64,000 nt of DNA, from assembly GCA_028706295.1 (NCBI GenBank), contig JAQWBQ010000005.1:11395-75394 (forward strand). Reading direction: 5' to 3'. The notes under the pieces are model-generated. The model was not told the DNA's origin. It saw only the letters and a program-made list of their open reading frames with translations, and did no database searches. This DNA is from Bacteroidales bacterium. Lineage in GTDB: Bacteria > Bacteroidota > Bacteroidia > Bacteroidales > FEN-979. A program made the position numbers and the translations under genes. Within the stretch, counting starts at the first letter, position 1. Each line of letters opens with the position of its first letter. Positions 26,298 through 55,926 of the stretch are shown piece after piece.

Positions 26298-26420
26298 AAA
26301 CAGGTTCTGATATGCAAATTTAGATAAAGGAAAACAATACCCCCTACCTGGAAAACAAAGACAGCTTCTTTCGAATTTAGACCATGTATAAATTAAACAA
26401 AATCTGAAAAAACCGTACGA

Positions 26421-26438
26421 TTGTTAAGTTAATCACAA
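26421..26438. promoter_or_regulatory. Rex-type operator, distal site (TTGTTAA-GTTA-ATCACAA)
   Basis: 18-bp imperfect palindrome matching the Rex consensus TTGTGAA-N4-TTCACAA (clostridial variant TTGTTAA-N4-TTAACAA). Lies in the AT-rich region upstream of hydrogenase operon 1. Confidence 0.55.
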
Positions 26439-26465
26439 AAGAAAATAATAAATTTGCTAAAAAAA

Positions 26466-26483
26466 TTGTTAATCTTTTCACAA
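26466..26483. promoter_or_regulatory. Rex-type operator, proximal site (TTGTTAA-TCTT-TTCACAA)
   Basis: One mismatch to TTGTGAA-N4-TTCACAA. Lies 54 nt upstream of the ATG at 26537. Confidence 0.65.
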
Positions 26484-26536
26484 TTAAAATTATTCACACC
26501 TAAAATATTATATATTAATAATTTAAAAAAACAATT

Positions 26537-27001
26537 ATGACTGAATGCCAATCATTAATCAGGGAATTAGCAGACAAATACGGCCGTGAACGAGCCAGCC
26601 TGCTGCCCATCCTGCAGGGAGTGGTTGAAAGGGATAATTTTCTTTCCGATACCTGTATGACTGATATAGCGAAAGAGTTGGATATCTCTGCTGCTCAGGT
26701 TTACGGTACTGCAACATTTTACTCCTTCCTCGAGACTCAGCCCAGGGGTGAGTATGTGATCCGTGTTTGCAAAACCATCACCTGCGATATGCATGGAAAA
26801 AAACAGATCGTCCAGACCCTGGAAGATATGTTGAAAATCAAGGTCGGAGAAACGACCCCGAACAAAAAATTCACCCTGCTCGAAACCAATTGCCTGGGAT
26901 GGTGCCATGAAGGCCCTGCCATGCTGATCAACGAAAAACCTTACAGCGGGCTTACTCCTGAAAAGGTACATGATATCATCAGTGAATATATCAACAAATA
27001 A
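26537..27001 (+). CDS. hydC: NuoE/HydC-like [2Fe-2S] subunit (hydrogenase operon 1)
   Basis: 154 aa. Cys pattern VCKTITC ... NCLGWC, typical of the 24-kDa NuoE/HndA family. Confidence 0.85.
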   Translation: MTECQSLIRELADKYGRERASLLPILQGVVERDNFLSDTCMTDIAKELDISAAQVYGTATFYSFLETQPRGEYVIRVCKTITCDMHGKKQIVQTLEDMLKIKVGETTPNKKFTLLETNCLGWCHEGPAMLINEKPYSGLTPEKVHDIISEYINK

Positions 27002-27025: not shown

Positions 27026-28192
27026 ATGTCAGAACAAACATTAAAGAGGGTTGACCTCATCTTCGGGGAATACTCCAGTGAAAAATATAAAGTCTTGGCC
27101 AATACCTTACATCGTTCGAATGAGGAAATTCTGAAGGATCTGCTGGAGTCAGGCCTTCGCGGCCGTGGCGGCGCAGGATTCCCGACAGCAATGAAATGGA
27201 AATTCACGGCCGAAACTCCGGGTGATGAAAAATATGTGATCTGTAATGCCGACGAAGGCGAACCGGGCACATTCAAAGACCGTGAAATTCTTTCAAGGGT
27301 ACCCCGTAAAGTATTCTCAGGAATGGCAATTTGCGGGAAAGTAATCGGCGCCCGCAAAGGATATATGTATCTGCGCGGCGAATACCGGTTCATGCTTCCC
27401 GAACTTCAAAAAGAACTCGACATTTATCATGAACATGCCAAAAACCTTGGACTGAACTTCCCGATCGAAATCAGAATGGGATCAGGAGCCTATATCTGTG
27501 GAGAAGAGAGCGCCCTTTTTGAATCCATGGAAGGCGGAAGAGGCGAACCCCGGAACAAACCGCCCTACCCCACAACCAGTGGATTTATGAAAAAACCGAC
27601 GGTTATCAACAATGTTGAAACATTTGTCAATGTGCTGATGATCATGCGCCTGGGCCCCGAACAGTATAAAAAACTCGGCACCACCGATTCGCGCGGTTCT
27701 AAGGTCTTTTCAGTTTCCGGCGACACCCCCATCCCCGGCATTTATGAACTCGAACTCGGTATGTCGCTCGATCGTTTTGTCGATGAATTCGGCGACGGAG
27801 ATACCAAGGCCGTACAGGTTGGAGGAGCATCAGGCTTTTGCGTTCCCAGAAAGAAATTCAAAGATACCATCATCGGTTTCGAAGGTGTCCCGACCGGCGG
27901 TTCCATGATGATTTTCAACAGCTCCAGGTCGATGTATAATGTCCTGCACAATTATCTCGAATTTTTCGAAGAGGAATCCTGCGGACAATGTACCCCATGC
28001 CGGGTTGGCTGCCAACAGTTACGCAAAGGGATTGAAGCAGTAAAGAAAGGTGAAAAGAAAGCCCTCTATCTTGATCAGTTGATGAAACTCAGCGAAAGTA
28101 TGAAACTTACTGCCAAGTGCGGACTCGGACAATCAGTCGCCAATTCATTCTCTTCCATCGTCAATAACTTCAAAGAAGAGATGATCTATTAA
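27026..28192 (+). CDS. hydB: Minimal NuoF-like flavoprotein subunit (FMN/NADH site plus one [4Fe-4S]) lacking the N- and C-terminal Fe-S domains
   Basis: 388 aa. GLRGRGGAGFPT (FMN), GAYICGEESAL (NADH), CGQCTPCR...CGLGQ (N3-type cluster). No Cys-rich N-terminal domain and no CxxCxxCxxxCP motifs at the C-terminus. Confidence 0.85.
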   Translation: MSEQTLKRVDLIFGEYSSEKYKVLANTLHRSNEEILKDLLESGLRGRGGAGFPTAMKWKFTAETPGDEKYVICNADEGEPGTFKDREILSRVPRKVFSGMAICGKVIGARKGYMYLRGEYRFMLPELQKELDIYHEHAKNLGLNFPIEIRMGSGAYICGEESALFESMEGGRGEPRNKPPYPTTSGFMKKPTVINNVETFVNVLMIMRLGPEQYKKLGTTDSRGSKVFSVSGDTPIPGIYELELGMSLDRFVDEFGDGDTKAVQVGGASGFCVPRKKFKDTIIGFEGVPTGGSMMIFNSSRSMYNVLHNYLEFFEEESCGQCTPCRVGCQQLRKGIEAVKKGEKKALYLDQLMKLSESMKLTAKCGLGQSVANSFSSIVNNFKEEMIY

Positions 28193-28225: not shown

Positions 28226-30019
28226 ATGGCTAAACAAATAAATCTGACGATCGACGGTATCGCCATCACAGTGGATGAAGGTACAACCATCCTCGAAGCC
28301 GCCCGCAAACTCAACATACACATCCCGACCCTCTGCTACCATGAAGATCTCTGTGTAGCCGGAAATTGCCGCGTATGTGTTGTTGAACAGGAAAAGGTAA
28401 AAAACCTCCCTGCATCATGCGCCATGCCGGTTTCTGAAGGAATGGTGATCCATACCAACAGCATGAAAGTTAGGCTTGCCCGGAAACACATCGTTGAATT
28501 GCTCCTTTCCGAACATAACGCCGACTGTACCAAATGTTACAAAAACGGGAACTGTGAGCTTCAGGGACTCGCCTCACAAATGCTCACCGGCGACCACCTT
28601 TTCCTCGATCTGGTACCCGAGAAAAATTACACCATCGACATGTTCAACACCGCCATCATTAAAGATGACAGCCGTTGCATCCGTTGTCAAAGATGTGTCC
28701 GCACCTGCGAAGAACTCCAGAGTGTAAGTGCACTCGGAGTGGCATACAAAGGTGATAAAATGAAAATTTCTACCTTCTTTGAACATTCGCTGTTTGAAGT
28801 CGTTTGCACCAACTGCGGACAGTGTGTGAACCGGTGCCCGACCGGAGCCCTCATCGAACGGAACTATATTGATCAGGTTTGGGACGCCATTTATGATCCG
28901 GGCAAACATGTCGTGGTACAAACCGCCCCCGCCGTCCGGGTAGCCCTTGGAGAAGCCCTGGGCTTGCCTCACGGAAAGATCGTTACCGGAAAAATGGTTG
29001 CAGCCCTTCGCAGACTGGGATTTTCTTCGGTACTCGACACCGACTTCACAGCAGACCTCACCATTATTGAAGAAGGCCACGAATTGCTGACCCGGCTGAA
29101 AAAAGCCCTGGTCGACAAAGATCCCACGGTTGCCCTCCCGATGGCTACTTCCTGCTCCCCGGGATGGATCAAGTTCATTGAACATACATTCCCTGAATAT
29201 CTGCCCAACCTGTCTACCTGTAAATCACCACAACAGATGTTCGGTGCACTGGCAAAAACCTACTACGCCCAAAAACGCAAACTCGATCCGCGTAATGTTG
29301 TGTCTGTTTCCATCATGCCTTGCACAGCCAAAAAGTTTGAGGCAAACCGACCCGAAATGCGCTCCAGCGGATTTAAGGATGTCGATTATGTACTCACAAC
29401 CCGTGAACTGGCCATCATGATCAAACAGGCCGGACTCGAATTTGACGAATTACCCGAAGAAAAATACGACAGTTTCATGGGTGCCTCCACCGGAGCAGCT
29501 GTTATCTTCGGATCCACCGGCGGTGTTATGGAAGCAGCCTTACGTACTGCGTATGAAATCGTAACCGGCAGGGAAGTACCATTCGATGGACTGAATATTA
29601 TCCCGGTCCGCGGAACAGAAGGTGAAGTCAGGGAAGCAACCATAAAAATCGAAAAAGTAAAACCTGAATGGAGCTTTCTCGAAGGTGTTGAACTGAAATG
29701 CGCGGTTGCAAACGGCTTGGCCCATGCCAAAACCGTTATGCAAAACGTTAAAGACGGTAAAGTCAATTACCACTTCATCGAAATTATGGCATGTCCGGGC
29801 GGATGTCTTGGCGGCGGGGGACAACCGATCCCTACCAGTCCCGAGATCAGATCGAAACGGAAGATGGCCATCTACCAGGAAGATATGGGAATGCCAATCC
29901 GTAAATCGCACGAAAATCCTGAGATTGCAGAGATCTATAAAGAATTCCTTGAGAAACCACTCGGACATAAATCTCACGAACTCCTGCACACCCATTATAC
30001 TCCGCGCAAGAGATATTAA
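28226..30019 (+). CDS. hydA: [FeFe]-hydrogenase catalytic subunit, M3 architecture, with a non-canonical L1 motif TSCSPGW
   Basis: 597 aa. N-terminal 2Fe-2S (CYHEDLCVAGNCRVC), HNADCTKCYKNGNCELQ, CIRCQRCVRTC and CTNCGQCVNRCP. H-cluster motifs are TSCSPGW (29147-29167), MPCTAKKFE and EIMACPGGCLGGGGQP. Confidence 0.9.
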   Translation: MAKQINLTIDGIAITVDEGTTILEAARKLNIHIPTLCYHEDLCVAGNCRVCVVEQEKVKNLPASCAMPVSEGMVIHTNSMKVRLARKHIVELLLSEHNADCTKCYKNGNCELQGLASQMLTGDHLFLDLVPEKNYTIDMFNTAIIKDDSRCIRCQRCVRTCEELQSVSALGVAYKGDKMKISTFFEHSLFEVVCTNCGQCVNRCPTGALIERNYIDQVWDAIYDPGKHVVVQTAPAVRVALGEALGLPHGKIVTGKMVAALRRLGFSSVLDTDFTADLTIIEEGHELLTRLKKALVDKDPTVALPMATSCSPGWIKFIEHTFPEYLPNLSTCKSPQQMFGALAKTYYAQKRKLDPRNVVSVSIMPCTAKKFEANRPEMRSSGFKDVDYVLTTRELAIMIKQAGLEFDELPEEKYDSFMGASTGAAVIFGSTGGVMEAALRTAYEIVTGREVPFDGLNIIPVRGTEGEVREATIKIEKVKPEWSFLEGVELKCAVANGLAHAKTVMQNVKDGKVNYHFIEIMACPGGCLGGGGQPIPTSPEIRSKRKMAIYQEDMGMPIRKSHENPEIAEIYKEFLEKPLGHKSHELLHTHYTPRKRY

Positions 30020-30034
30020 TCTTTCAAAACCGTT

Positions 30035-30087: not shown

Positions 30088-30120
30088 AAAAAAAAGGAGA
30101 CGGCCTTTTGAGCCGCCTCC
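30088..30120 (-). terminator. Rho-independent terminator of the minus-strand gene 30166-31053
   Basis: On the minus strand: ggaggcggc-tcaaaa-ggccgtctcc followed by T8. Confidence 0.7.
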
Positions 30121-30165: not shown

Positions 30166-31053
30166 TTAAATTTTGGGTTTCTCGGTTGAAGTCTTGGTTT
30201 CCGGACGCTCTTCTCCCTTTGACGACTCCGGCGTCGTCTGTGATTTCTTTTGTTGCTGCATCTCATATTCTTCCGCTCCTTGTTGCGGACGCACAATGAC
30301 TCTGACATTCTTTTCACCTCCCCTGGTACGCTGCCTCATCTGTTGAGGCTTTTCCCTCACAATCACCATCCGGTCGCGAACAACGGGAAACGGACCATCT
30401 TCAAGGTCAATCACAATCCTTTTCCCATTTTTCCGATCCTTGATGGAATAACTTTTTACACGATCCATCGGAATATCACCCAACAGTTCGTTCAACGAAC
30501 CCCGTTCGTCCCGGCTGAAATTCAGGATTCTGTGGTCCGGGCATGGCACAGGACAATCAAACCTGAAACCTTCGGGAGATTCCCATTCAGGAAGTTCAGG
30601 TAGTTCCGGACATTCGAAATCATAATCATAGTTAAACCCTTGGGGAAACCTGTGTATCCTGACATTACCTCCCTTTCCTTTGTTTTTGAGAACAATGATG
30701 TTATCCATGTCGTTTTCAAGAGAATCAAGATTTTCCAGGTTCTCCAACTCCAGATCAATATTATAACCCTCCTTTTTCATGTTCATCTTCATTGCTTTCA
30801 TATCCCCCTTCAGTTTATGTACCAGCTCCCTGATCTCTTCCCGGTCAAGGGACGAATTATACGTAATCGTTGTGTCGATGGTCGTTGTCTTTCCATCGTC
30901 ATCCTTCACGATTTTTAGGTGGATGGTCGATTCCTTTTTCGACGAATCGGATCCTGTGTCCTGGGTCCGTCCTGGTTTTGTGATAAAAATTACCAGTATG
31001 GTTGCCACTGCTGTGACAAAAAACCGGCTTGGTGAAATGCTGAAGATTTTCAT
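30166..31053 (-). CDS. Secreted hypothetical protein with a Lys/Glu/Pro/Thr-rich C-terminal tail
   Basis: 295 aa with an N-terminal signal/TM segment. No recognisable catalytic motif. Divergent from the two-component system. Confidence 0.5.
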   Translation of the reverse strand: MKIFSISPSRFFVTAVATILVIFITKPGRTQDTGSDSSKKESTIHLKIVKDDDGKTTTIDTTITYNSSLDREEIRELVHKLKGDMKAMKMNMKKEGYNIDLELENLENLDSLENDMDNIIVLKNKGKGGNVRIHRFPQGFNYDYDFECPELPELPEWESPEGFRFDCPVPCPDHRILNFSRDERGSLNELLGDIPMDRVKSYSIKDRKNGKRIVIDLEDGPFPVVRDRMVIVREKPQQMRQRTRGGEKNVRVIVRPQQGAEEYEMQQQKKSQTTPESSKGEERPETKTSTEKPKI

Positions 31054-31188
31054 GAGGTCCTCCTGTGTTTTAAATGATGTCGCAAATCTAAACTGTCTAA
31101 GCAGTTGAAAATGTTAATGTATCGTTAAATTCAGTTAAGGAATCGTTAATCTTGATGATTGGGGAACTCCTTTATTTACTTTTGTACC

Positions 31189-33069
31189 ATGAATAAGAAA
31201 TTGCTATACATTTTGATCCTTTGCATCTGCATATCCCTTGTGGGGATCATCATTGTCCAGTTCTTTTGGATCCGGAACGCATTCCAGGTCAAGGAAGCCC
31301 AATTTAACCGAAGTGTTAACGATGCCCTTGGAGATGTTGTCAATAAGATAGAGACCAGGGAAAACATGCACTTCATCAGCCGCAATTATGAAGGCGACAG
31401 CATCATGAGTATCGTTCAGGCTTTTTCAAAAGATTCATCCATTACCATCAAAGCCCGCCTTGACTCACTGCTCGCATTGAATGAACTACCAGAAACACAT
31501 TCTTTACCAAAACACCGTTCTGAACGTGCATTCCGCCGCCCGCTCGCACCGGGCGTTCTCCATTACTCCTACCAGTATAACGTGATCCCTGTCCTGGAAG
31601 GTCTCGACTCGCTGACAATAAGGATGGAACAGGTTTATGAAGAAATGCATCAGATTGAACCTGATGCATACAGTTTTGAATGGAAAGATCAGGTAAGCAA
31701 ACTTGATTCCATGATAGAAATCAACGAACGGAATCGGGGACTGGCATTTCAGGAGAAGGAGTGGGAATCCGACCAGGCAGGCAACAAAACCATTATTTTA
31801 ACAACACCAGGGTACCGGCGATCACGGAATATCCAGCATCCGATCTCCCCAAATCCATCTCCTCCTACCCCAATGAGCAGGATGAAAGTAAACCGTGAAA
31901 AATTCCAATACCGCGAAAATAACATTCAGAAGCTGGACAATAAGGCAAAAAAAATCCAGGATGTTATTAAAAAAATGGCTATCGAATTAGAAACCAAACC
32001 AGCACCAATCCAGCAACGGATTAACAAAAAAACGCTCCAGGCTTCTTTGAGCAAATCGTTAATTGATAAAGGAATCGATCTTCCGTTTGAATTTGCCGTG
32101 TATTCTCCAACAAACGACAGCAATCATATTCCGATCCGGTCGGCCGGATTTATTGAACCCGGAACGATCTCCGATCATAAAGTTTCCCTATTCCCCAACG
32201 ATTTATTCAAAAAGCCTGATTTGCTCGTTATCCGCTTCCCCGGACAGAAAACTCATGTTCTGAAATCTTTGTCTTTGCTGCTTGCAGGTTCTGTCCTCTT
32301 TACGCTGATCATCATTCTCTCCTCCGGTGCAAGCATCGTGGTAATGATCCGGCAAAAGAAAATTTCGGATATTAAAACCGATTTCATAAACAACATGACC
32401 CATGAGTTTAAAACTCCCATAGCGACTATTTCCATCGCTGCTGATTCGATCAATAATCCAAGGGTACTGTCGGAACCGGATACTATTAAAAATTTCACAA
32501 GGATCATAAAGGAAGAGAACAACCGGATGAACACACGGGTAGAACAGGTCCTTCAGATGGCGTTATTGGACAGTCGTGACTTCAAACTCCGACTTGTACT
32601 TGTTGATCTGAATGAACTAATCGAAAGGGTAACCGATCATTTCAGGTTGCAGGTAGAAAAACGTGAGGGAAAGATCATTACTGATCTGAGGGCCGAAAAC
32701 CCCATGGTACTTGCAGATGAAGATCATATGAGAAATGTGCTCCTCAACCTTCTCGACAATGCCAACAAATATTCCATCATCAAACCACAGATCACCGTTA
32801 CTTCCTTTAACCGATCCGGAAAATATTTTTTCTCTGTTCAGGATAGAGGGTTAGGCATGAGTGCAGATACACAGCGGAAAATCTTTGATAAATTCTACCG
32901 GGTTACATCCGGAAACATACATAATATTAAAGGATTCGGTCTGGGATTAAGTTATGTCAGGGCAATTGTCCTGGCACACAAAGGTGAAATCCAACTGCAG
33001 AGCGAATTCGGGAAAGGAAGCAAATTCGAAATAAGTATGGTCAATGCTCAAACAAATCAGAATGAATAA
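31189..33069 (+). CDS. Sensor histidine kinase (membrane-bound, large N-terminal sensor region)
   Basis: H-box FINNMTHEFKTPIATI, N-box LLNLLDNANKY, G-boxes DRGLGM and GFGLGLSYV. ATG at 31189 is preferred over TTG at 31159. Confidence 0.85.
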   Translation: MNKKLLYILILCICISLVGIIIVQFFWIRNAFQVKEAQFNRSVNDALGDVVNKIETRENMHFISRNYEGDSIMSIVQAFSKDSSITIKARLDSLLALNELPETHSLPKHRSERAFRRPLAPGVLHYSYQYNVIPVLEGLDSLTIRMEQVYEEMHQIEPDAYSFEWKDQVSKLDSMIEINERNRGLAFQEKEWESDQAGNKTIILTTPGYRRSRNIQHPISPNPSPPTPMSRMKVNREKFQYRENNIQKLDNKAKKIQDVIKKMAIELETKPAPIQQRINKKTLQASLSKSLIDKGIDLPFEFAVYSPTNDSNHIPIRSAGFIEPGTISDHKVSLFPNDLFKKPDLLVIRFPGQKTHVLKSLSLLLAGSVLFTLIIILSSGASIVVMIRQKKISDIKTDFINNMTHEFKTPIATISIAADSINNPRVLSEPDTIKNFTRIIKEENNRMNTRVEQVLQMALLDSRDFKLRLVLVDLNELIERVTDHFRLQVEKREGKIITDLRAENPMVLADEDHMRNVLLNLLDNANKYSIIKPQITVTSFNRSGKYFFSVQDRGLGMSADTQRKIFDKFYRVTSGNIHNIKGFGLGLSYVRAIVLAHKGEIQLQSEFGKGSKFEISMVNAQTNQNE

Positions 33070-33760
33070 AAAAATCAAAATACTGCTGGTCGAAGACGAC
33101 CCCAATTTTGGATCTATAATGAAATCTTACCTGGAGCTCAACGATTTCTCAGTCGTTTTAAAATCGGATGGTAAACAGGGATTATCAACATTTAAATCCG
33201 AAGCCTTCGATATCTGCATCCTTGATGTTATGATGCCAGAAATGGACGGTTTTACTTTGGCTAAAGAGATTAAGAAAACCAACAGCCCGGTCCCTTTCAT
33301 CTTTCTTACGGCGAAATCACTGAAAGAGGATATGCTGGAAGGCTTCAGAACGGGAGCCGATGATTATATAACCAAACCATTCGATTCGGAGGTCCTGCTC
33401 TTTAAACTTCATGCCATCCTGAAAAGAAATCTCAAATCACCCAACAACGAAAATGAACCGAGTGAGATCATGGTGGGAAAATTGAAATTCAACATTCCAT
33501 TACGGACACTTTCCTTCGAAAAAGAGACCTTTCAACTTTCGCCCAAAGAAGCGAACCTGCTGAAAATGCTTTGTTCCGCCAAAGATGGAATTCTGCTGCG
33601 CAAAGATGCCTTGGAACAGATATGGGGGGCTGATAACTACTTCAATGGCAGAAGTATGGATGTATTCATCGCCAGGCTCAGGAAGTACCTGAAAACCGAT
33701 CCCTGTATTGAAATTGCGAACATCCATGGAAATGGATTTCGATTAGTTATCCAGAAATAA
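33062..33760 (+). CDS. OmpR-family DNA-binding response regulator
   Basis: REC domain (ILLVEDD...ILDVMMPEMDG...LTAK) plus a winged-helix output (LSPKEANLLKML...FIARLRKYL). The ATG overlaps the kinase stop by 8 nt. Confidence 0.85.
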   Translation: MNKKIKILLVEDDPNFGSIMKSYLELNDFSVVLKSDGKQGLSTFKSEAFDICILDVMMPEMDGFTLAKEIKKTNSPVPFIFLTAKSLKEDMLEGFRTGADDYITKPFDSEVLLFKLHAILKRNLKSPNNENEPSEIMVGKLKFNIPLRTLSFEKETFQLSPKEANLLKMLCSAKDGILLRKDALEQIWGADNYFNGRSMDVFIARLRKYLKTDPCIEIANIHGNGFRLVIQK

Positions 33761-33782: not shown

Positions 33783-33800
33783 TTGTTAAATAAATAACAA
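33783..33800. promoter_or_regulatory. 18-bp palindrome TTGTTAA-ATAA-ATAACAA (degenerate Rex-like site)
   Basis: Perfect TTGTTA-N6-TAACAA inverted repeat. One mismatch to the clostridial Rex variant TTGTTAA-N4-TTAACAA. Lies about 30 nt upstream of a -7 box. Confidence 0.4.
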
Positions 33801-33866: not shown

Positions 33867-34232
33867 ATGGCAGCAACGAACAACCTGGTTAACTTAGAAA
33901 AAATAGCGCAGCTCCTCGATGGCCAGATCATTACCGACGCCGGAAATCCCGACCGGATCATTGAGGGGGCCTTTGCTTCTGACCTCATGAGCGATGTTCT
34001 CACACTCCCGACTAAACATTTGTTGTTATTGACAGGCCTGGTCAACATCCAGGCGATCAGGACGGCCGAAATGTCAGACATCGATTGTATCGTATTTGTC
34101 AGAAATAAAAAAGTAACAGTCGAAATGACCAACCTGGCTAATGAAACCGGGATTGCAATAATCCACAGTCCTTTTTCCATGTATAAAGCCAGCGGCATTT
34201 TATACCAGGCTGGAATCAAACCCGTTTATTGA
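33867..34232 (+). CDS. DRTGG domain protein (copy 1)
   Basis: 121 aa. ...GAFASDLMSDVL...LLLLTGL... pattern typical of small DRTGG proteins found in Firmicutes/Thermotogae hydrogenase operons. Confidence 0.7.
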   Translation: MAATNNLVNLEKIAQLLDGQIITDAGNPDRIIEGAFASDLMSDVLTLPTKHLLLLTGLVNIQAIRTAEMSDIDCIVFVRNKKVTVEMTNLANETGIAIIHSPFSMYKASGILYQAGIKPVY

Positions 34233-36417: not shown

Positions 36418-36470
36418 TTCCATTTCTGAGTGTTTACTGATTCATTGTATTGAAAAGCTATTTCGCACGA

Positions 36471-37411: not shown

Positions 37412-37448
37412 AGTGAATAAAATAACAATAAAGTTTTTTATCTTTGCA

Positions 37449-37994: not shown

Positions 37995-38017
37995 ATTTAT
38001 ACAACATACTGATTTTT

Positions 38018-47322: not shown

Positions 47323-47357
47323 TTGTTTATTTTTTCACATTGATAATTTTTTCACAA
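47323..47357. promoter_or_regulatory. Two abutting Rex-like operators in the divergent S2 / operon 3 control region
   Basis: 47323-47340 is TTGTTTA-TTTT-TTCACAT. 47340-47357 is TTGATAA-TTTT-TTCACAA. Each has an intact or near-intact TTCACA(A) half-site. Confidence 0.55.
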
Positions 47358-47890: not shown

Positions 47891-49840
47891 ATGGTTGTCG
47901 TTAATACAACAGAACAAAAGGAGTTTCTCACCGAAAAGGTACTGAAGAATTATTCCAGTGTATTTGATAAAGCCACATCCGATCGTCTTTCGCTGATAAA
48001 AAGGGAGCGGATAGATCATTCTGTGATCTATGTCGGAATGGGTACCTGCGGCATTACCGCGGGGTCAGCAAAGACTTACGATGCGATTCAAAGATATTGT
48101 AAGAATCACAACCCGGAGGCAGAAATCATCCGGGTCGGATGCATTGGCATGTGTTCGGCGGAGCCGCTCATGGATGTCCAGTTACCGGGAAAGACCAGGA
48201 TCTCTTTCCATCATGTCACGGAGGACCTGGTGGAAGACATTCTGAACTCTGTTTTTCACCGGAGCCTCTCCACCGACCATGTTTTAGGGCAATTCAAATC
48301 GCAATCGCAGGAGGTTTGGCCAAACATCCCGTTTATCGATCAACTCCCGTTTTTTGCAAAACAACACCGGATCGTAACGCGTAATGCAGGGATTATTTCG
48401 CCCAATAGTATTGATGATTATTTGGCTTCCGGCGGTTACAAGTCATTATATAAGACTGTGTTGAATTACACGGCCGACAAGGTATGTGATATTATCACGC
48501 AGAGTGAATTGCGTGGGCGTGGCGGAGGGGGGTATCCGACAGGAAAAAAATGGATGATGGCCCTGGGTACCGGCAGTGATCAAAAGTATTTGATATGCAA
48601 TGCAGACGAAAGCGATCCGGGGGCATTCATGAACCGTTCAATTATCGAGGGTGATCCACACAGAGTTATTGAGGGAATTGCCATTGCTTCCTATGCCATC
48701 GGTGCAAACAATGCATATATCTACCTCCGTGCCGATTATGAACAGCCACATACCTTATTGCTCAAAGCCATTGATGATGCCAGGGAATACGGATTTCTGG
48801 GTGAGAATATTTTTGGAAGTGGTTTTAATCTGAAAATCCACATCAGGCTTGGGGCCGGAGCTTTTGTTTGCGGAGAAGAGACCGCATTGATTGCAAGTCT
48901 TGAAGGCAAGCAGGGAATTCCTCAATCGAAGCCCCCGTATCCTGCTGAAAAGGGGCTATTCGGCCATCCAACGGTTGTCAATAATATCGAAACGCTTGCC
49001 AATGTCCCTTCGATCCTTGAAAACGGGCCTTCGTGGTTCAAATCGACCGGGATCAGGGACAACCGGGGGACCAAAATCTTCTGCATTTCCGGGAAGGCAG
49101 TAACAACAGGCTTTGCAGAGGTACCTATCGGTTCAAAACTTTCAGATCTGGTGACCGGGATTGGTGGCGGAGTCAGGGATGGGAAAAAACTGAAAGCAGT
49201 TCAATTCGGTGGACCTTCCGGAGTCTGCATTCCTACGCAAAACCTTGATATGGAGATCAGTTATGAGTCGATGCAGGAAATCGGTTCTTCATTAGGGTTG
49301 GGTGGTTTGATCCTGTTGGACGAAGAAACCTGCATGGTCAGTCTTTCGAAATATTTTATGCAGTTCCTGCAGCATGAAAGCTGCGGAAAGTGCATTCCCT
49401 GCCGGGAAGGCACACGGAGGATGTTGCAGATCCTTGATGAGATAAGTCGCAGGCCCCGCGAAGAGAGTTCCCATGAGACCCTGGAACGGTTCAAAGGAGT
49501 TGTTGAGTTGGAGCGACTGGCTTCGGTGATCAAAGACACCTCACTCTGTGGTTTGGGCCAGAATGCCCCAAATCCTGTCATTTCCTCGTTAAAGTGGTTC
49601 CGTGAAGAGTACGAAGAGCATATTTTCGACCGAAAGTGTCAGGCTGGTGTCTGCCGGGATCTCAGGACGTTTTATATCAATGCGGACCTTTGCAACGGAT
49701 GTAATCTTTGTCAGCGTAAGTGTCCCGAAAACGCAATTATCGGGACCGTCAAATACCCGCATTTCATCATTGAGTCAAAATGTACAGGTTGCGGGATCTG
49801 TTTTGATGTTTGTAAGTTTAATGCAATCTATTTCAAGTAA
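47891..49840 (+). CDS. hydB: Full-length HydB/NuoF-like subunit with an extended N-terminus (operon 3)
   Basis: 649 aa. GTCG...GCIGMC, ELRGRGGGGYPTG, GAFVCGEETAL, CGKCIPCR, CNGCNLCQRKCP, CTGCGICFDVC. Confidence 0.9.
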   Translation: MVVVNTTEQKEFLTEKVLKNYSSVFDKATSDRLSLIKRERIDHSVIYVGMGTCGITAGSAKTYDAIQRYCKNHNPEAEIIRVGCIGMCSAEPLMDVQLPGKTRISFHHVTEDLVEDILNSVFHRSLSTDHVLGQFKSQSQEVWPNIPFIDQLPFFAKQHRIVTRNAGIISPNSIDDYLASGGYKSLYKTVLNYTADKVCDIITQSELRGRGGGGYPTGKKWMMALGTGSDQKYLICNADESDPGAFMNRSIIEGDPHRVIEGIAIASYAIGANNAYIYLRADYEQPHTLLLKAIDDAREYGFLGENIFGSGFNLKIHIRLGAGAFVCGEETALIASLEGKQGIPQSKPPYPAEKGLFGHPTVVNNIETLANVPSILENGPSWFKSTGIRDNRGTKIFCISGKAVTTGFAEVPIGSKLSDLVTGIGGGVRDGKKLKAVQFGGPSGVCIPTQNLDMEISYESMQEIGSSLGLGGLILLDEETCMVSLSKYFMQFLQHESCGKCIPCREGTRRMLQILDEISRRPREESSHETLERFKGVVELERLASVIKDTSLCGLGQNAPNPVISSLKWFREEYEEHIFDRKCQAGVCRDLRTFYINADLCNGCNLCQRKCPENAIIGTVKYPHFIIESKCTGCGICFDVCKFNAIYFK

Positions 49841-49845: not shown

Positions 49846-51564
49846 ATGCAATTCAATATTGAGATCAATAATCAGCAGGTATCGGCAAAGCGGGGCGAGA
49901 CCATTAAAAATGTGCTGGATCGTATCGGGATCAATATTCCCACATTGTGTTATATGAATGGTTTCTCACCTTCGGGTGGGTGCAGGATGTGTGTTGTGGA
50001 GATCGAGGGTATACCGGGACTTGTTCCGGCCTGTTCGCATCCGGTCAGTGAGTGGATGAAGATCAGGACTCACTCCCCCAAAGTATTAAAGGCCAGAAAA
50101 GTTATTGTAGAACTCCTTCTGGCAAGTCATCCTGACGATTGTTTGTATTGTGAGCGGAGCGGAGCGTGTCGTTTACAGGAACTGGCGGTTGAAATGGACA
50201 TTCACGATCGAAAGTACCATGGAAAGCGGGAGATTATTCCGATCGATAAAGCGTGTCCTTCGGTCATAAGAGATCCTGAGAAGTGTGTGCTTTGCGGTCG
50301 TTGTATCCGTGTGTGTGACGAGGTGATCGGGGTTTCAGCGATAGATATTGTCGGCAGAGGATCGGAAAGCAGGATAGGCACCTCGTACAACAAGGGATTG
50401 AATATGCAAACCTGTGTAAAATGCGGTCAATGTATTATGGTTTGCCCGACCGGAGCGTTGACTGAGCGGTCGTCACTGACAAGTGTCGTGGAGGCACTGA
50501 ATAATCCGGAACTCTTTCCGGTGATCCAGTTCTCTCCTACCGTCCCTGCTTCGATTGCTGAGGAATTCAATCTCAAGGCCAGTAAGGATATTTTAAATAT
50601 TGTCAGGGCAGCGTTGAAACGGATAGGGTTCCGGCAGGTATTCGACACCTCCATGGCGGCCGATCTGCATATCATGGAAGAGGCAGCTACTTTTGTAGAG
50701 CGTCTCAATTCAAATGGTCCCTTACCCCTGCTGACCTCCTGTTGTCCTTCCTGGGTCAGGTATGTTGAAGAGCTTTACCCCTCACTTATCCCAAATCTTG
50801 CCACACCACGGTCACCGCAACAGATCATGGGCAGGATGATCAAAAACTATATTGCCAGTTCAGCAGGGATTAAGCCTGAGAGTGTCTTTGTTGTGTCTGT
50901 TATGCCCTGTACTGCAAAAAAATATGAATCCGGACAGGATATAGGGAAAGAGGGCTCTTACCGGTTTGTTGATGCCGTGCTTACCACCCGCGAACTGAAT
51001 AAAATCATCAGGTTGCTTGGGATCGATTTCAGCGCCCTGGAGCCTGAGCCAAGCGATACTGCCTTCAGTATGCGCAGCTCGGCCGGAAATCTGTTCGGGG
51101 TTTCAGGAGGTCACCTGGAAGGGCTGATGCGTACGATACATTTTATGTTGACAGGTCAGGAGATGAGTCCCCTGAAACTTATGGAGTTGCGGGGTTTAAA
51201 GAACAGGAAAGAGGCGCGGGTCAAGATCGGTAAGGCGATCTTCCCGGTTGTTGCCGTTAACGGTCTCGCTCAGATGAAACCAATAATGGATGAAATTATC
51301 TCGCAAAAGAATGCGTTCAAGATCATTGAGGTTATGGCTTGTCCTTTTGGCTGTATAAACGGCGGAGGACAAAAGCTAAACCCGGATGAGAAGAATCTGA
51401 AATCACGGATGAAAGCATTATATGATGTGGATGAGGAAGAGATGATCAAGGTATCACATAAGAATCCGATCGTCAATGATCTGTATGATAAATTTCTTGG
51501 AAAGCCCGGGAGTGACAGAAACCGGGAGATCCTGCATGTTTCACGCAATACCGATAAGGAGTAA
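49846..51564 (+). CDS. hydA: [FeFe]-hydrogenase catalytic subunit (operon 3)
   Basis: 572 aa. TSCCPSW (50734-50754), MPCTAKKYE, EVMACPFGCINGGGQ, plus N-terminal 2Fe-2S and 4Fe-4S motifs. Confidence 0.9.
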   Translation: MQFNIEINNQQVSAKRGETIKNVLDRIGINIPTLCYMNGFSPSGGCRMCVVEIEGIPGLVPACSHPVSEWMKIRTHSPKVLKARKVIVELLLASHPDDCLYCERSGACRLQELAVEMDIHDRKYHGKREIIPIDKACPSVIRDPEKCVLCGRCIRVCDEVIGVSAIDIVGRGSESRIGTSYNKGLNMQTCVKCGQCIMVCPTGALTERSSLTSVVEALNNPELFPVIQFSPTVPASIAEEFNLKASKDILNIVRAALKRIGFRQVFDTSMAADLHIMEEAATFVERLNSNGPLPLLTSCCPSWVRYVEELYPSLIPNLATPRSPQQIMGRMIKNYIASSAGIKPESVFVVSVMPCTAKKYESGQDIGKEGSYRFVDAVLTTRELNKIIRLLGIDFSALEPEPSDTAFSMRSSAGNLFGVSGGHLEGLMRTIHFMLTGQEMSPLKLMELRGLKNRKEARVKIGKAIFPVVAVNGLAQMKPIMDEIISQKNAFKIIEVMACPFGCINGGGQKLNPDEKNLKSRMKALYDVDEEEMIKVSHKNPIVNDLYDKFLGKPGSDRNREILHVSRNTDKE

Positions 51565-53546
51565 TGGGACATACCTATCACCGGCAGCTTGTTTTCACGA
51601 TCAAGGATCGTTGCCGGGTATGTTTTACCTGTGTAAGGGAATGTCCGGTAAAAGCCATTAAGATCATCAATGGTCAGGCAGAGGTGTTAAACGACCGTTG
51701 TATCGGATGTGGCAATTGTGTGAGGGTTTGCAGCCAGGGCGCCAAGGTTCCCCTGAGATCGGTTGAGGCTGTGGAGAATCTTTTACAATCGGGATCGAAG
51801 ATCGCCGCTTGTTTAGCGCCGAGTTTTCCGGCAGAGTTTACCGAAATCCGTGAACCCGGGCTGATGGCAGGAATGATCCGCGCATTGGGGTTTGATTATG
51901 TCAGCGAGGTTTCGTTCGGGGCCGATCTCGTTGCGCTGCAATATGAAAAAATGATCAAAGGCAGTGGCACAGAGGGTTCGATCTCTTCAGATTGTCCTGC
52001 CATCGTTTATTTTATCCGACACTATCATCCTGATCTGGTAAAATCACTGGCGCCCATCGTATCACCCATGCTTGCGATGACCCGGGTTATGAAAAAAAAA
52101 TACGGTGAAGATCTGAAGGTGGTTTTCATCGGGCCTTGTTTTGCCAAAAAGGCCGAATCACTTGAGGTTGACGAGGTTCTGACTTACATGGAACTCCGCG
52201 AGATGTTGGTAAAACGGGGGATCACGCCTGAAAAGGTAGTTCCCTCACCTTTTGACCCACCCCACAGCGGTAAAGGGTCTATTTTTCCAGTCAGCCGGGG
52301 GTTGTTTTACACGGCCAATAATCAGGAATCGATTCCTGAGGAACGAGTTATCATTGCAGAAGGGCGCGAGCATTACAAGGCTGCCATCAATGAGTTTGAA
52401 GAGGGATCAATCCGCGACAAACAATTAATGCTTTTGTGTTGTGACGGTTGTATCATGGGGCCCGGAACATCACCGGGTGGCAAACGATATATTCGGAGTG
52501 CCGCTGTTGGCGATTATGTGAAAAACAAGATCAAAAAGATCGATGAGGAATCCTGGAACAATGATATCCGGGAATTTCTCGAACTCGATTTTTCACAAAG
52601 CTTTGTTCCGGAAGACAGACGGCTTTCGCCTCCCAGCGCTGATGATGTATTAGAAGCCTTACATTCGATGGGAAAATTCTCGCCGATGGATCACCTGAAT
52701 TGCGGAGCTTGTGGTTATGATACCTGTGTGGATCATGCCAGCGCCATCGTAACGGGTCTTGCCGAGTCGGAGATGTGTCTCCCTTATGCCATTGAGAAGC
52801 TGCACACCTCGATCAGTTCCCTCAACCTGACCCATGAAAAGCTCGCGAAAGCCAAGGCAGCGCTCAAACAATCGGAAAAACTGGCCCACATGGGACAATT
52901 GTCGGCCGGTATCGCACATGAATTGAATAATCCGTTGGGTGTAATTACGATGTACAGCAACATCCTGATGGACGAAGCGCCCGATGGAGATCCTGTCCGC
53001 GAGGATTTAAAACTTATCGTTGAGCAGGCTGACCGGTGTAAAAAAATCGTCAGTGGTTTGTTGAATTTCGCCAGAAAAAATCAGGTAACTCTTTCTGAGA
53101 CCGATGTAATCAAATTTACCCAACACAGCCTGAACTCCATTGTCAAGCCCGATTCTGTCAACTTTCAGTTTACATCGGGTATTGAGAATCCTATAGCTTA
53201 TTTGGATATTGATCAGATGATGCAGGTATTGACGAACCTGGAGAAAAACGCGATAGAGGCGATGCCCGAAGGGGGAACGCTGAAAGTCGGAGTGGAAGGC
53301 GATGATTCGGAAGTTACATTTATTGTTTCCGACACGGGAATCGGAATCCCCAAGGAAAACATGGACAAGCTTTTCACTCCCTTCTTCACGACCAAAGAGA
53401 TGGGAAAGGGAACCGGATTGGGGCTTGCATTGATATACGGCATTGTTAAAATGCATAAAGGGAAAATTCACGTCGATTCGGTTTCTGATCCCGCTGAAGC
53501 GCCTACCGGGACCACGTTCAGGATTACAATTCCCCGTGGAACATAG
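51564..53546 (+). CDS. HydS-like sensory [FeFe]-hydrogenase homologue fused to a histidine kinase (S3)
   Basis: 660 aa. CFTCVRECP and CIGCGNCVRVC. L1 is SSDCPAIV (51984-51998), L2 is GPCFAKKAE, L3 is CCDGCIMGPG (52437-52466). 4-Cys CGACGYDTC...C. H-box SAGIAHELNNP and HATPase GTGLGLALIYG. The start overlaps the hydA stop (TAATG). Confidence 0.85.
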   Translation: MGHTYHRQLVFTIKDRCRVCFTCVRECPVKAIKIINGQAEVLNDRCIGCGNCVRVCSQGAKVPLRSVEAVENLLQSGSKIAACLAPSFPAEFTEIREPGLMAGMIRALGFDYVSEVSFGADLVALQYEKMIKGSGTEGSISSDCPAIVYFIRHYHPDLVKSLAPIVSPMLAMTRVMKKKYGEDLKVVFIGPCFAKKAESLEVDEVLTYMELREMLVKRGITPEKVVPSPFDPPHSGKGSIFPVSRGLFYTANNQESIPEERVIIAEGREHYKAAINEFEEGSIRDKQLMLLCCDGCIMGPGTSPGGKRYIRSAAVGDYVKNKIKKIDEESWNNDIREFLELDFSQSFVPEDRRLSPPSADDVLEALHSMGKFSPMDHLNCGACGYDTCVDHASAIVTGLAESEMCLPYAIEKLHTSISSLNLTHEKLAKAKAALKQSEKLAHMGQLSAGIAHELNNPLGVITMYSNILMDEAPDGDPVREDLKLIVEQADRCKKIVSGLLNFARKNQVTLSETDVIKFTQHSLNSIVKPDSVNFQFTSGIENPIAYLDIDQMMQVLTNLEKNAIEAMPEGGTLKVGVEGDDSEVTFIVSDTGIGIPKENMDKLFTPFFTTKEMGKGTGLGLALIYGIVKMHKGKIHVDSVSDPAEAPTGTTFRITIPRGT

Positions 53547-53653
53547 GTTGAATGAACCAGTCCGGCAAATTTGTGATCTGTTATGCAAGGAAGGCCGCAC
53601 GGGAGGTGGCAGAGATAAAATGAATTTTAAATGCGAATAAAAATTTTTACAAT

Positions 53654-54055
53654 ATGGCACCGGTAAATAAAACCATTTTAATTGTTGATGATGATCAGGA
53701 TTATTTGTTTCAGCTTAAAATGAAGGTTGAAAAGTTTGGGTACAAGACGATCACAGCCGACAGCCAAGAGGAAGCTGAGGAATTACTGGAGCGGATCAAG
53801 CCTGATCTTGCGATCCTTGATCTTATGATGGAGAAGGAGGACAGCGGATTCATCCTGTGTTACCGGATGAAGAAAAAATATCCCGATGTCCCCATCATCA
53901 TCGCCACGGGTGTTGCGGCTGAAACGGGGATCATTTTTGACATTCAGGATGAGAACAACCGTAAATGGATCAAGGCTGACCGTTTCCTTGACAAAGGAAT
54001 CAGGTCGGAGCTCCTGAAGATGGAGATTGAAAAGCTTTTACAGAAACCTAATTGA
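53654..54055 (+). CDS. Single-domain response regulator (receiver only)
   Basis: 133 aa. ILIVDDD...DLAILDLMM...IIATG. No output domain. Confidence 0.85.
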   Translation: MAPVNKTILIVDDDQDYLFQLKMKVEKFGYKTITADSQEEAEELLERIKPDLAILDLMMEKEDSGFILCYRMKKKYPDVPIIIATGVAAETGIIFDIQDENNRKWIKADRFLDKGIRSELLKMEIEKLLQKPN

Positions 54056-54160
54056 AACAGCATACTACCTAAAAGAGCAGTATTGGACAATCTAAATGTG
54101 AACCACATGGCAAATCACCGGTGAGGATCCCTGTCCGGAATTTTTTGGAAAAATTAAATT

Positions 54161-55294
54161 ATGGCAACATTAAAAATACTGGTAGTTGATGATGAGCCCG
54201 GCATCCGAAGCGGTGTAAGCCGGATCCTGAGAAATTTCAGGGTTGATTATCCTTTCATGGATGAGCCCTTCGATTTTGAAGTTCTCGAAGCAGCCACCGG
54301 GGAGGAAGGAATTGAGATTATTGAATCGAATCCTCCCGATATCCTGCTGCTCGATAACAAACTCCCCGGCATCCAGGGTGTTGAGGTCCTTGAATATATC
54401 AAGAAGAAGCAAATCAGCATCATTGTGGTCATGATCACTTCCTATGCATCGCTTGAGCTTGCGGTGAAGGCAACCAGTGACGGGGCTTATGACTTCATTC
54501 CAAAACCATTTACCCCGCAGGAGTTGAAGTCCTCGGTCGAGAATATCACGAAAAGGGTTTTTCTTAAAAAGATGACGACCCGGCTGCAGGATACCGGGAA
54601 GCAGATCCGTTTTACTTTTTTATCTGTACTCTCCCACGAGCTGAAAGCGCCGTTAAATGCTATTGAAGGATATCTGAAGATGATCAAAGAGCGGCAAAAC
54701 GGAATCCAGTTAGCCGATTACGACGTAATGATCGATCGCTCCCTGGAACGGATCAAAGGGATGAGAACCCTGATCCTTGACTTGTTGGATCTTACCCGCG
54801 TGGAATCGGGCAAAGCCAAACGGAACATTACACGGGTCGATCTTGTGTCAATCGCACGTACGGCCATGGACACGATGCGGCCCTATGCCATTCAGCGGGA
54901 TGTCGTATTGAATTTGCAGACCCGTGAGCCGGTTGAAATGGACGCGGACAGCGAAGAGCTGGAAATTATTTTCAATAATTTGATTTCCAATGCAATAAAA
55001 TATAACCGTGATGGAGGCAGGGTTGATTGTTTGATCGAACCCGGTGACGGGAAATTGGTGATCCAGGTCACCGATACCGGTATCGGGATGACACCTGCAG
55101 AGATCGAAAAGATCTTTGATGATTTTGTCCGGATCAAGAATGAAAAGACCAAGAATATAACCGGAACCGGACTGGGTTTGTCGATTGTCAAGAAACTTAT
55201 TGACCATTATAACGGCCGGATCGAAGTTGTGAGCAATCCGGATGCCGGCAGTACCTTCAAAGTTATTCTTCCAACTGTAAAACCATGTTCATAA
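54161..55294 (+). CDS. Hybrid receiver-histidine kinase (REC-HisKA-HATPase)
   Basis: 377 aa. ILVVDDE...ILLLDNKLPG, H-box LSHELKAPLNAI, DTGIGM, GTGLGLSIV. Confidence 0.85.
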   Translation: MATLKILVVDDEPGIRSGVSRILRNFRVDYPFMDEPFDFEVLEAATGEEGIEIIESNPPDILLLDNKLPGIQGVEVLEYIKKKQISIIVVMITSYASLELAVKATSDGAYDFIPKPFTPQELKSSVENITKRVFLKKMTTRLQDTGKQIRFTFLSVLSHELKAPLNAIEGYLKMIKERQNGIQLADYDVMIDRSLERIKGMRTLILDLLDLTRVESGKAKRNITRVDLVSIARTAMDTMRPYAIQRDVVLNLQTREPVEMDADSEELEIIFNNLISNAIKYNRDGGRVDCLIEPGDGKLVIQVTDTGIGMTPAEIEKIFDDFVRIKNEKTKNITGTGLGLSIVKKLIDHYNGRIEVVSNPDAGSTFKVILPTVKPCS

Positions 55295-55926
55295 GAAATT
55301 TACCCCATAAAACCGTTGAGCGCCTGAGTCAGTACCGTCGCTCCTTATTGATGACCCTTTCAAAAGAAAAAACCCATGTTTTTTCTCATGAAATTGCGCA
55401 GATGCTCCACATCACTCCTGTTCAGGTCAGACGTGACCTGATGCTGATCGGCTACTCGGGAAACCTAAGAAAAGGTTATGACATCAAGGAGTTGATTGAT
55501 CTGATCGGAAAAATCATAGATTCGGACCGGGGTCAGCGGGTTGCTGTGGTCGGGCTCGGAAATCTCGGGAAGGCAATGATCAGCTATTTTAAGGGGAAAA
55601 GATCGAAACTGGCAATCATTGCAGCCTTTGACATCAATCCGGAGAAGATCAACCGGATTTACGACGGGGTTGCCTGCTACCATGTAAGCCAGCTGACCGA
55701 TATCATCAGGCAAAACAACATTTCAATCGGAATCATTTCGGTTCCTTCGGAGCAGGCGCCTGAAATAGCCGAGACCATGGTATTGGCAGGGATCAAGGGA
55801 ATTCTTAATTTCACACCCAAACCCCTGAATGTACCTGCCTTTGTTTACCTTGAGGAGTATGACATGATAACTTCTCTGGAGAAAGTAGCTTTCTTTGCCA
55901 AGAAAAATGATGAACGATTTAAGTAG
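55285..55926 (+). CDS. rex: Redox-sensing transcriptional repressor Rex
   Basis: 213 aa. Winged helix (VERLSQYRRSL...ITPVQVRRDL..IGYSG..RKGY) plus Rossmann motif VVGLGNLGKA and GIKGILNFTP. The start overlaps the upstream kinase by 10 nt. Confidence 0.85.
   Translation: MFIRNLPHKTVERLSQYRRSLLMTLSKEKTHVFSHEIAQMLHITPVQVRRDLMLIGYSGNLRKGYDIKELIDLIGKIIDSDRGQRVAVVGLGNLGKAMISYFKGKRSKLAIIAAFDINPEKINRIYDGVACYHVSQLTDIIRQNNISIGIISVPSEQAPEIAETMVLAGIKGILNFTPKPLNVPAFVYLEEYDMITSLEKVAFFAKKNDERFK

Follow-up and report, generated by a model that had tools for sequence, protein, structure and literature searches.

A conserved island of Prolixibacteraceae-like Bacteroidota that probably joins three [FeFe]-hydrogenases to their regulators

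What is a gene cluster that packs three [FeFe]-hydrogenase operons, three further hydrogenase-like proteins and the repressor Rex into about 30 kb likely to do, and is it as unusual as it looks? The question was raised by a 64,000-nucleotide (64-kb) stretch of the Bacteroidales bacterium contig JAQWBQ010000005.1 (the window). An earlier reading of its letters, hereafter the sequence-only reading, had placed three NuoE/NuoF/HydA operons, three hydrogenase-like proteins (here S1, S2 and S3) and Rex between truA (25512-26297, minus strand) and ribF (55938-56867). Open reading frame (ORF) listings and Pfam scans recovered every one of these parts between the two boundary genes, each at the place which that reading had given it, and Pfam domains and gene neighbours bore out its view that the three putative sensors have three different output wirings. 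We regard it as fairly probable that the block constitutes a conserved hydrogen-metabolism island of Prolixibacteraceae-like Bacteroidota, in which three predicted cytoplasmic NADH-linked [FeFe]-hydrogenases are combined with their regulators by a mechanism that we infer from the genes.

Operon 1 (plus strand, as are the other two; domains from Pfam) encodes the NuoE-like 2Fe-2S protein HydC1 (26537-27001), the short, 388-amino-acid (aa) NuoF-like flavoprotein HydB1 (27026-28192) and the 597-aa HydA1 (28226-30019). Operon 2 opens with a GHKL ATPase gene (37413-37994), which is followed by the genes for a small thioredoxin-like, HydD-like 2Fe-2S protein (37991-38413), HydB2 (38432-40225), HydA2 (40239-42011) and HydC2 (42122-42598) and by a strong terminator (42625-42649). 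Operon 3, transcribed divergently from the S2 gene, consists of the genes for HydC3 (47422-47889), the 649-aa HydB3 (47891-49840) and HydA3 (49846-51564). The sequence-only reading had listed the three as complete [FeFe]-hydrogenase operons. The criteria of Losey et al. (2020; PMC7311640), which we applied through an alignment to T. maritima HydB and by motif scans, distinguish bifurcating HydB proteins (Ala/Glu at residue 232 and Met at 234 by T. maritima HydB numbering, a GAGAFxCGE motif with Phe, a GGPSG motif and additional Fe-S domains) from non-bifurcating ones (Thr/Ser at 232, Lys/Ser/Ala at 234, an FMN-site Tyr, no GGPSG and fewer Fe-S domains). The Phe/Tyr position, numbered 367 in that study, corresponds to T. 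maritima HydB residue 312 in our alignment. HydB1 has Thr and Lys at 232 and 234 (within DEGEPGTFKDR), Tyr in the FMN-site motif GSGAYICGE, GGASG as its SLBB motif and no extra Fe-S domain, its only domains being Complex1_51K and NADH_4Fe-4S. In contrast, HydB2 and HydB3 have Ala and Met at these positions, Phe in GAGAFVCGE, GGPSG, and both an N-terminal 2Fe-2S and a C-terminal 2x[4Fe-4S] domain. Collectively, HydB1 carries every non-bifurcating and none of the bifurcating signatures, while HydB2 and HydB3 carry all of the bifurcating ones, and because of the signatures of HydB1 the operons cannot be considered equivalent. By these signatures, operon 1 is predicted to encode a non-bifurcating, NADH-dependent [FeFe]-hydrogenase, and operons 2 and 3 are predicted to encode electron-bifurcating enzymes that would use NADH plus ferredoxin.

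N-terminal 2Fe-2S and 4Fe-4S domains are present in all three HydA proteins (Pfam), and HydA2 and HydA3 contain the canonical H-cluster motifs TSCCP, MPCxxKKYE and ExMACxxGC. In HydA1 the L1 motif (residues 308 to 312) reads TSCSP instead of TSCCP, with Ser at the position of the CpI C300 ligand. The idea that HydA1 is inactive for this reason was dropped, since the identical motif occurs in A. woodii HydA1 (7Q4V chain A), an active enzyme of solved structure; TSCSP was also found in one of two aligned HydA1-like homologues. HydA1 and HydA2 scored 869 and 904 bits against NF040763 ("NADH-dependent [FeFe] hydrogenase, group A6"; cut-off 765), while HydA3 stayed under that cut-off and reached 406.3 bits against the general group A model TIGR02512 (cut-off 405.95). 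The identity between HydA1 and HydA2 is 51%, that of HydA3 to the other two 37-38%, and the three enzyme sets are, as judged from these alignments, old paralogues.

Among characterized systems, operons 2 and 3 resemble the bifurcating HydABC/HydABCD enzymes of group A3 (T. maritima, T. kivui and A. woodii; 7P5H, 8A6T and 7Q4V) in the M3 domain order and canonical motifs of HydA2 and HydA3, in the Fe-S domains and the Ala/Met, Phe and GGPSG signatures of HydB2 and HydB3, and in the NuoE-like HydC. HydB2 matched A. woodii HydB with 863 bits, and HydA1 matched T. kivui HydA1 with 624 bits. The differences are that three sets stand side by side here, that HydA3 is divergent, and that operon 2 has the order D-B-A-C with a GHKL gene first. 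HydB1 is similar to the HydB proteins of the non-bifurcating S. wolfei Hyd1ABC and S. aciditrophicus HydAB (PMC7311640) in its Thr/Lys pair, the Tyr of GxGAYxCGE, GGASG and the absence of extra Fe-S domains. However, the HydB1 set belongs to a fermentative lineage of Bacteroidota and not to a syntroph, is encoded beside two bifurcating-type enzymes, and has the TSCSP motif of A. woodii HydA1 in its HydA.

If the enzymes differ, how might their expression be tied together? The sequence-only reading had guessed an NADH-responsive layer from the presence of a Rex gene (55285-55926, plus strand; PF06971 and PF02629), the start of which overlaps the end of the hybrid kinase gene described below. 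The encoded protein exceeded the thresholds of several NCBIfam Rex models (with 198 bits against 126 for NF003995, for instance) and consists of an N-terminal winged helix and a Rossmann NAD(H)-binding domain, whose GxGxxG motif reads GLGNLG. We searched the whole window for the operator TTGTGAAN4TTCACAA (the consensus cited in PMC5317091), allowing up to three mismatches. Two palindromes lie upstream of operon 1 (26421-26438 and 26466-26483, with two and one mismatches), one upstream of the S1 module (33783-33800, three mismatches), a perfect match, TTGTGAATTTTTTCACAA, upstream of operon 2 (37394-37411), and a tandem pair in the divergent S2/operon 3 intergenic region (47323-47340 and 47340-47357). 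In other words, the four promoter regions of the island (727 bp) account for six of the window's eight sites. Dinucleotide shuffles of the same 727 bp gave 0.16 matches on average, and none of 2000 reached six.

The operator-like sites are also kept in relatives, which turned the guess into a prediction with support beyond the gene itself. In 887 kb drawn from related loci, sites with at most two mismatches numbered 64, of which 52 lay in the corresponding promoter regions; the fetched loci stop short of the operon 1 promoter. The site of operon 2, upstream of hydD or hydB, is kept whether or not the S1 module is present, and sites with at most two mismatches precede the homologue of the first gene of the S1 module in two loci. 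The tandem pair is found in 41 of 43 related loci, where it forms the best-conserved block of the intergenic alignment beside TAnnTTTG boxes, another of which stands at 26449 between the two palindromes of operon 1. These boxes, located by eye and by regular expression only, resemble the Bacteroidota -7 promoter element; a scan for sigma-70 promoters gave counts at background level and was uninformative. The two tandem boxes overlap by one base, at an offset of 17 bp, and their right half-site, TTCACA, is almost invariant. Collectively, the predicted Rex regulon covers all three operons and the S1 module. Likewise, Caldithrix abyssi rex-hydABC (PMC5317091) and the Rex regulons of Clostridia and Thermotogae have rex in the cluster and TTGTGAAN4TTCACAA-like operators upstream. 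The present system differs from them in that rex stands at the 3' end of a sensor cassette, that operators precede four transcription units, and that the S2/operon 3 pair has a lineage-specific left half-site (TTGTTTA or TTG[C/A]TAA).

Is the arrangement a peculiarity of one genome? The sequence-only reading had called it unusual and had proposed a synteny search across Bacteroidota. When 30 window proteins were compared with 58 fetched loci by tblastn, the order ribF-Rex-REC-kinase-REC-S3-HydA3-B3-C3 / S2-PP2C / HydC2-A2-B2-D2 recurred wherever the contig was long enough. The core synteny was found in about 40 species-level genomes of Prolixibacteraceae/Bacteroidales, all of them metagenome-assembled genomes (MAGs) and two of them complete MAG chromosomes, at S2 identities from 100% down to 51%. 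An assembly artefact or chimera was ruled out, as dozens of independent assemblies, including the two complete chromosomes, share the order. The relatives of the locus all come from MAGs of Prolixibacteraceae, Draconibacterium or Bacteroidales, in agreement with the Bacteroidota origin claimed earlier, Prolixibacteraceae being members of Bacteroidota. Moreover, S3-like and S2-like proteins each formed more than 120 clusters (at 90% identity) that were more than 68% identical to the query, and nearly all of the named ones were labelled as Bacteroidota. The island is common, and not unusual, within the Prolixibacteraceae-like lineage.

The clustering could be incidental, with three independently acquired cassettes each under its own adjacent sensor only and no integrated control. 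We consider this unlikely, although it fares better than the other alternatives. It agrees with the age of the enzyme paralogues and with the S1 module, which comes and goes among relatives. The same cassettes also occur in other combinations: in an Ignavibacteriales locus (L055), an S3-like kinase, a receiver (REC), a REC-kinase and another REC lie directly upstream of an operon-1-like hydrogenase with a short HydB, and in a Muiribacteriota locus (L057), Rex-HydC-HydB-HydA, an S3-like sensor and PP2C form one string, which indicates that such cassettes recombine across phyla. However, one regulator motif, the Rex box, stands before all four transcription units, the core order has held while S2 identity fell from 100% to 51%, and S2 and S3 are close paralogues (37% identity over 500 residues, compared with 27-31% for either against S1) that face each other across a single shared regulatory region.

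What, then, do the hydrogenase-like proteins contribute? According to Land et al. (2020), 2x[4Fe-4S], an H-domain and a Cx2Cx4Cx16C motif, with no cysteine at C299, are common to the sensory types M2f (group C) and M2e (group D). M2f proteins additionally contain a PAS domain, and M353 is replaced by Gly in T. maritima HydS; M2e proteins contain no PAS domain, have Ser or Thr at M353, and are encoded upstream of a multimeric group A enzyme and beside a GHKL ATPase. Characterized relatives show low turnover and sensor-like properties (Land et al. 2020). The sequence-only reading had described the motifs of all three proteins of the island as degenerate in the sensory manner. This description fits S1 and S3, which keep all four H-cluster ligands; S2 is more degenerate, as detailed below.

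S3 (51564-53546, plus strand) is a putative group C sensor fused to a histidine kinase: its Pfam domains are Fer4, Fe_hyd_lg_C, PF04060, HisKA and HATPase_c, with the HisKA-HATPase core where PAS would be expected. Its motifs read SSDCP, GPCFAKKAE (Gly at M353) and CCDGC, the second cysteine of the last being aligned to C499. All four ligand cysteines are conserved across 42 orthologues, as is Cx2Cx4C, the scored part of the C-terminal Cx2Cx4Cx16C motif (42/42). Asp occupies the CpI C299 position in 41 of the 42, and in none of 140 S2-like representatives. In prototypical enzymes, the only replacement of this cysteine that is reported to preserve activity is by Asp, and for these two reasons S3 may retain a proton relay. 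The S3 gene is followed by genes for a stand-alone receiver (53654-54055, plus strand) and a REC-HisKA-HATPase hybrid kinase (54161-55294, plus strand), which are syntenic in all related loci covering the region. The H-boxes of S3 and of the hybrid kinase read AHELNNP and SHELKAP, respectively, and the acidic pockets of the receivers are present.

S1 (465 aa; 34659-36056, plus strand) belongs to a string of plus-strand genes, assigned by Pfam, that also encodes a weakly DRTGG-like protein (unk121; 33867-34232), an RsbW-type GHKL ATPase (34240-34662) that overlaps the start of S1, a DRTGG protein (36043-36417) and a PHP phosphoesterase (36450-37220), with operon 2 downstream. Its motifs are SSFCP (Phe at C299), TPCAAK (Thr at M353) and ACDESC with both L3 cysteines, so that all four H-cluster cysteines are present, and they are intact in the S1 orthologues as well. 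The protein ends shortly after a CGICGSPSC-x16-C motif and has no PAS domain. On every point of Land et al. (2020), S1 fits the predicted M2e/group D sensors. With the putative group D/M2e sensors (T. mathranii HydS) it shares a replaced M353 (Thr in S1), the GHKL neighbour and the place upstream of a multimeric group A enzyme, but an AraC neighbour is absent and the DRTGG, PHP and second GHKL proteins are present instead. Of 22 informative loci, 9 contained the S1 module along with the GHKL gene at 37413. The other 13 lacked it, and in these hydD or hydB is directly followed by the OmpR-type pair, the 30166-31053-type gene and HydA1 (see below for these genes). The S1 module appears to be an optional part of the island, and its sole variable one.

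From these modules a mechanism can be proposed. Rex would bind the operators before the three operons, the S1 module and S2 and would be released when the NADH/NAD+ ratio rises. S3 would bind an H-cluster, H2 occupancy of which would set the activity of its histidine kinase, and phosphate would pass from S3 to both the lone receiver and the REC-kinase hybrid. For the DNA-binding output at the end of this path, the locus offers a single candidate, the OmpR-type regulator at 33044-33760. S1 would act on operon 2 via its GHKL, DRTGG and PHP partners, probably by Ser/Thr phosphorylation, and S2 would signal through its PAS domain to the PP2C phosphatase encoded next to it. The enzyme of operon 1, as an NADH-only hydrogenase, would be useful solely at very low H2.

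Alternatively, S3 and S1, at least, might be extra subunits of the hydrogenase complexes, electron carriers or post-translational tuners rather than transcriptional sensors of H2. The start of S3 overlaps the hydA3 stop codon, S1 stands in one gene string with operon 2, in which we found no terminator between the S1 module and the operon, and neither module contains a DNA-binding protein. Furthermore, a study of Hydrogenedentota treats the equivalent protein as the "T subunit" of BfuABC (PMC11406978). On the other hand, S3 possesses a complete HisKA-HATPase core with a conserved H-box, and in every relative two receiver genes come after it. S1 and S3 lack the cysteine of CpI C299 that their low-turnover, sensor-like relatives also lack, and no subunit of this kind is present in the solved HydABC complexes, where S2 finds its best PDB matches in the HydA chains only. 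Given these features, a role as extra subunits seems rather improbable to us, and a sensory role remains the reading that we prefer for S1 and S3.

S2 presents a different problem. This 624-aa group C-like protein (45357-47231, minus strand, with an ATG start at 47231) consists of 2x[4Fe-4S], an H-domain, the Cx2Cx4Cx16C motif, a coiled coil and a putative PAS domain (Pfam Fer4, Fe_hyd_lg_C and PF04060). Its motifs are TSNCP (Asn at 299), GPC (Gly at 353) and FYDEGC, in which Asp takes the place of the CpI C499 ligand. None of 44 S2 orthologues has Cys at that position; 36 have Asp, 6 have Asn and 2 have Lys. In the L029 orthologue C355 is lost as well, and in the orthologues of two loci, L051 and L052, all four ligands are gone (with D, L, K and F in their place), although both loci retain the PP2C neighbour and an intact S3. 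P0242 has likewise lost all four. A wider library search gave the opposite picture, with all four ligands in 136 of 140 full-length representatives and Gly at 353 in 120 of 140, and the nearest relatives of S2 outside the clade read FYCEGC. Because of these two observations, the ligand loss of S2 is, as far as alignments tell, derived, clade-specific and rare, and the rest of the protein appears to be under continued selection. The orthologues lacking all four ligand cysteines indicate that the function of S2 and PP2C does not depend on an H-cluster. To speak of three H2 sensors, as the sequence-only reading had done, was therefore an overstatement, since the ligand set of S2 is incomplete and some orthologues have no ligand at all.

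The PAS domain of S2 is below threshold by sequence (Pfam E value of 0.003; a PDB profile search gave the Aer2 PAS domain at an E value of 0.07), but several orthologues have Pfam PAS_8 matches. An AlphaFold model of the C-terminal domain, of low confidence (pLDDT of 54), has the beta2-alpha4-beta3 topology of PAS, and its top Foldseek matches are all PAS domains (CitA, PYP, NifL and NtrB; E values of about 3e-4). The partner of S2, encoded immediately downstream, is a 394-aa PP2C/SpoIIE-family phosphatase (44070-45254, minus strand; Pfam), the orthologues of which are uniformly 394 aa long. Its C-terminal 163 residues (44073-44561) form a highly conserved alpha/beta domain (model pLDDT of 87 and pTM of 0.83) without a PDB match at an E value of 0.001 or below; the closest folds were methylglyoxal-synthase-like, with a TM score of about 0.5. 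S2 and S3 share with the group C/M2f proteins (T. maritima HydS, R. albus HydS and T. saccharolyticum HfsB) their architecture, a non-Cys residue at C299 and Gly at M353, and S2 additionally shares the PAS domain and a Ser/Thr phosphatase neighbour. They differ from them in that S2 lacks the C499 ligand and that S3 has a histidine-kinase core instead of PAS and Asp at C299. R. albus HydS with its phosphatase and the deletion of T. saccharolyticum hfsB are precedents for such a system.

That S2 is simply a decaying, functionless paralogue of S3, leaving at most two working hydrogenase-like sensors plus Rex, would explain the ligand losses within the clade and their rarity elsewhere (4/140), but it is very improbable, since S2 and PP2C are kept together in every related locus at S2 identities of 51-100%, all 44 orthologues retain every accessory Fe-S cysteine (8 in the ferredoxin domain and 4 in the C-terminal cluster), many alignment columns of the PAS region do not vary and the promoter region of S2, with its Rex boxes, is conserved, a pattern which points to selection on a changed function and not to decay. 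Because its H-cluster site is incomplete, S2 more likely reports the Fe-S/redox state or a partner protein than H2 itself.

A more ambitious version of the regulated island is a controller with three inputs, in which Rex would read NADH/NAD+, S3 would read H2 and S2 would read the redox state of ferredoxin or Fe-S clusters via PAS and PP2C, the inputs together choosing between the NADH-only and the two bifurcating enzymes. We regard this as a speculative proposal with the chances well against it. If it were true, each input would be one reactant of the bifurcating hydrogenase reaction, and S2, though derived from a hydrogenase, would have given up the H-cluster and kept three accessory Fe-S clusters. 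With a ligand series running from CCCC through CCDC to no ligand cysteine (L051 and L052), it would then be the first bacterial "pseudo-hydrogenase" sensor with stepwise loss of the active site in one family.

Several observations weigh against the reading of the locus as a hydrogen-metabolism island controlled by Rex and by the sensors. The organism is known only from MAGs, and no genes for the maturases HydE, HydF and HydG (hydEFG) were found within the 64-kb window. Pfam found no DNA-binding domain in the S3 cassette, the only such regulator being the OmpR-type protein (33044-33760) 18 kb away, and because the module contains no such output, the target of S3 is a guess. Translational coupling of S3 to hydA3, as suggested by their overlap, would fit a structural "T subunit" too. 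In S2 of this genome, three Cys and an Asp could still hold a cluster. Several Rex sites are off-consensus in the left half-site (TTGTTTA and TTGCTAA), and those of S2/operon 3 lie upstream of the putative -33/-7 elements and not over them.

How much of this is new? The sequence-only reading had considered the arrangement novel and its parts known mainly from Firmicutes and Thermotogae. Within the literature collection searched, we found neither the combined arrangement nor hydrogenase regulation in Prolixibacteraceae described, so the first claim holds for the description but not for the arrangement, which is common in its family. The second was too narrow, since kinase-fused sensors beside A3 enzymes (PMC11406978) and rex-hydABC with a Rex box (PMC5317091) have been reported elsewhere. 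In Hydrogenedentota, group C proteins with PAS or histidine-kinase domains lie beside A3 enzymes, and some are without recognizable H-cluster motifs (PMC11406978). Hydrogenedentota "BfuT" likewise combines a hydrogenase-like protein with a histidine kinase directly beside bfuABC/hydABC, but S3 differs from it by the fixed cassette of REC, REC-kinase and Rex and by the divergently oriented PAS/PP2C paralogue. Compared with the known group C and D systems, all three sensor types occur here in one locus. What is new is the combination, together with Rex wiring that is conserved in Bacteroidota and an H-cluster site that S2 has lost by degrees; every type of component has a precedent.

The interval also contains genes that were absent from the list of the sequence-only reading. 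A membrane histidine kinase (31159-33069, plus strand; Pfam), the N-terminal region of which gave no significant family in a family search, and the OmpR-type response regulator (33044-33760, plus strand; Pfam), which carries the sole REC-linked DNA-binding domain in the island, form a two-component pair of the classical type (31159-33760) that is kept between operon 2 and operon 1 in relatives. Next to it, a conserved gene (30166-31053, minus strand) encodes a protein of 295 aa whose N terminus includes a hydrophobic segment and whose tail is charged and of low complexity. Pfam and family searches with this protein yielded no significant family, homologues with 29-38% identity occupy the equivalent place beside HydA1 in relatives, and a hairpin terminator (30096-30120) lies 3' of the gene. 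Finally, a Fib_succ_major lipoprotein gene (42774-43934, minus strand; Pfam) lies between operon 2 and PP2C. Most relatives have nothing at that place, two others have distant copies elsewhere, and the gene looks like a variable insertion without relation to the island.

The remainder of the window is housekeeping DNA (tig, clpPX, parAB, dapB, ftsK, lolA, trmD and rplS), and flanking genes carry DUF4294, DUF5683 and DUF5684 domains. The ORF at 24499-25467 contains the pyrimidine-binding and C-terminal transketolase domains (Pfam), and the ORF just upstream of it (23469-24314) may supply the N-terminal half, which would make this a split transketolase. A 355-aa ORF (12003-13070, minus strand) between lytB and nusB-domain genes had no Pfam match at an E value of 1e-5 or below. 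It should be noted that SACF01000014.1, from a MAG titled "Alphaproteobacteria bacterium INTA.CYC.164", is 100% identical to the window; since all relatives of the locus are Prolixibacteraceae or Bacteroidales, that MAG is probably mislabelled or mis-binned.

The sensing of H2 by fermenting anaerobes is still largely unproven, and the case for a sensory role of group C and D proteins rests mainly on two enzymes studied by spectroscopy and on a small number of Firmicutes knockouts. For annotation, the case of S2 means that pipelines counting every group C match as an H2 sensor would miscount proteins of this kind. The island brings three sensor architectures, two enzyme types and Rex together in one 30-kb block, and nature has already varied it: the S1 module is present or absent, and the ligand set of S2 is intact, partly lost or fully lost. 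It thus offers a compact comparative system in which the role of each sensor, the need of signalling for an H-cluster and the switch between NADH-only and bifurcating H2 production could be addressed.

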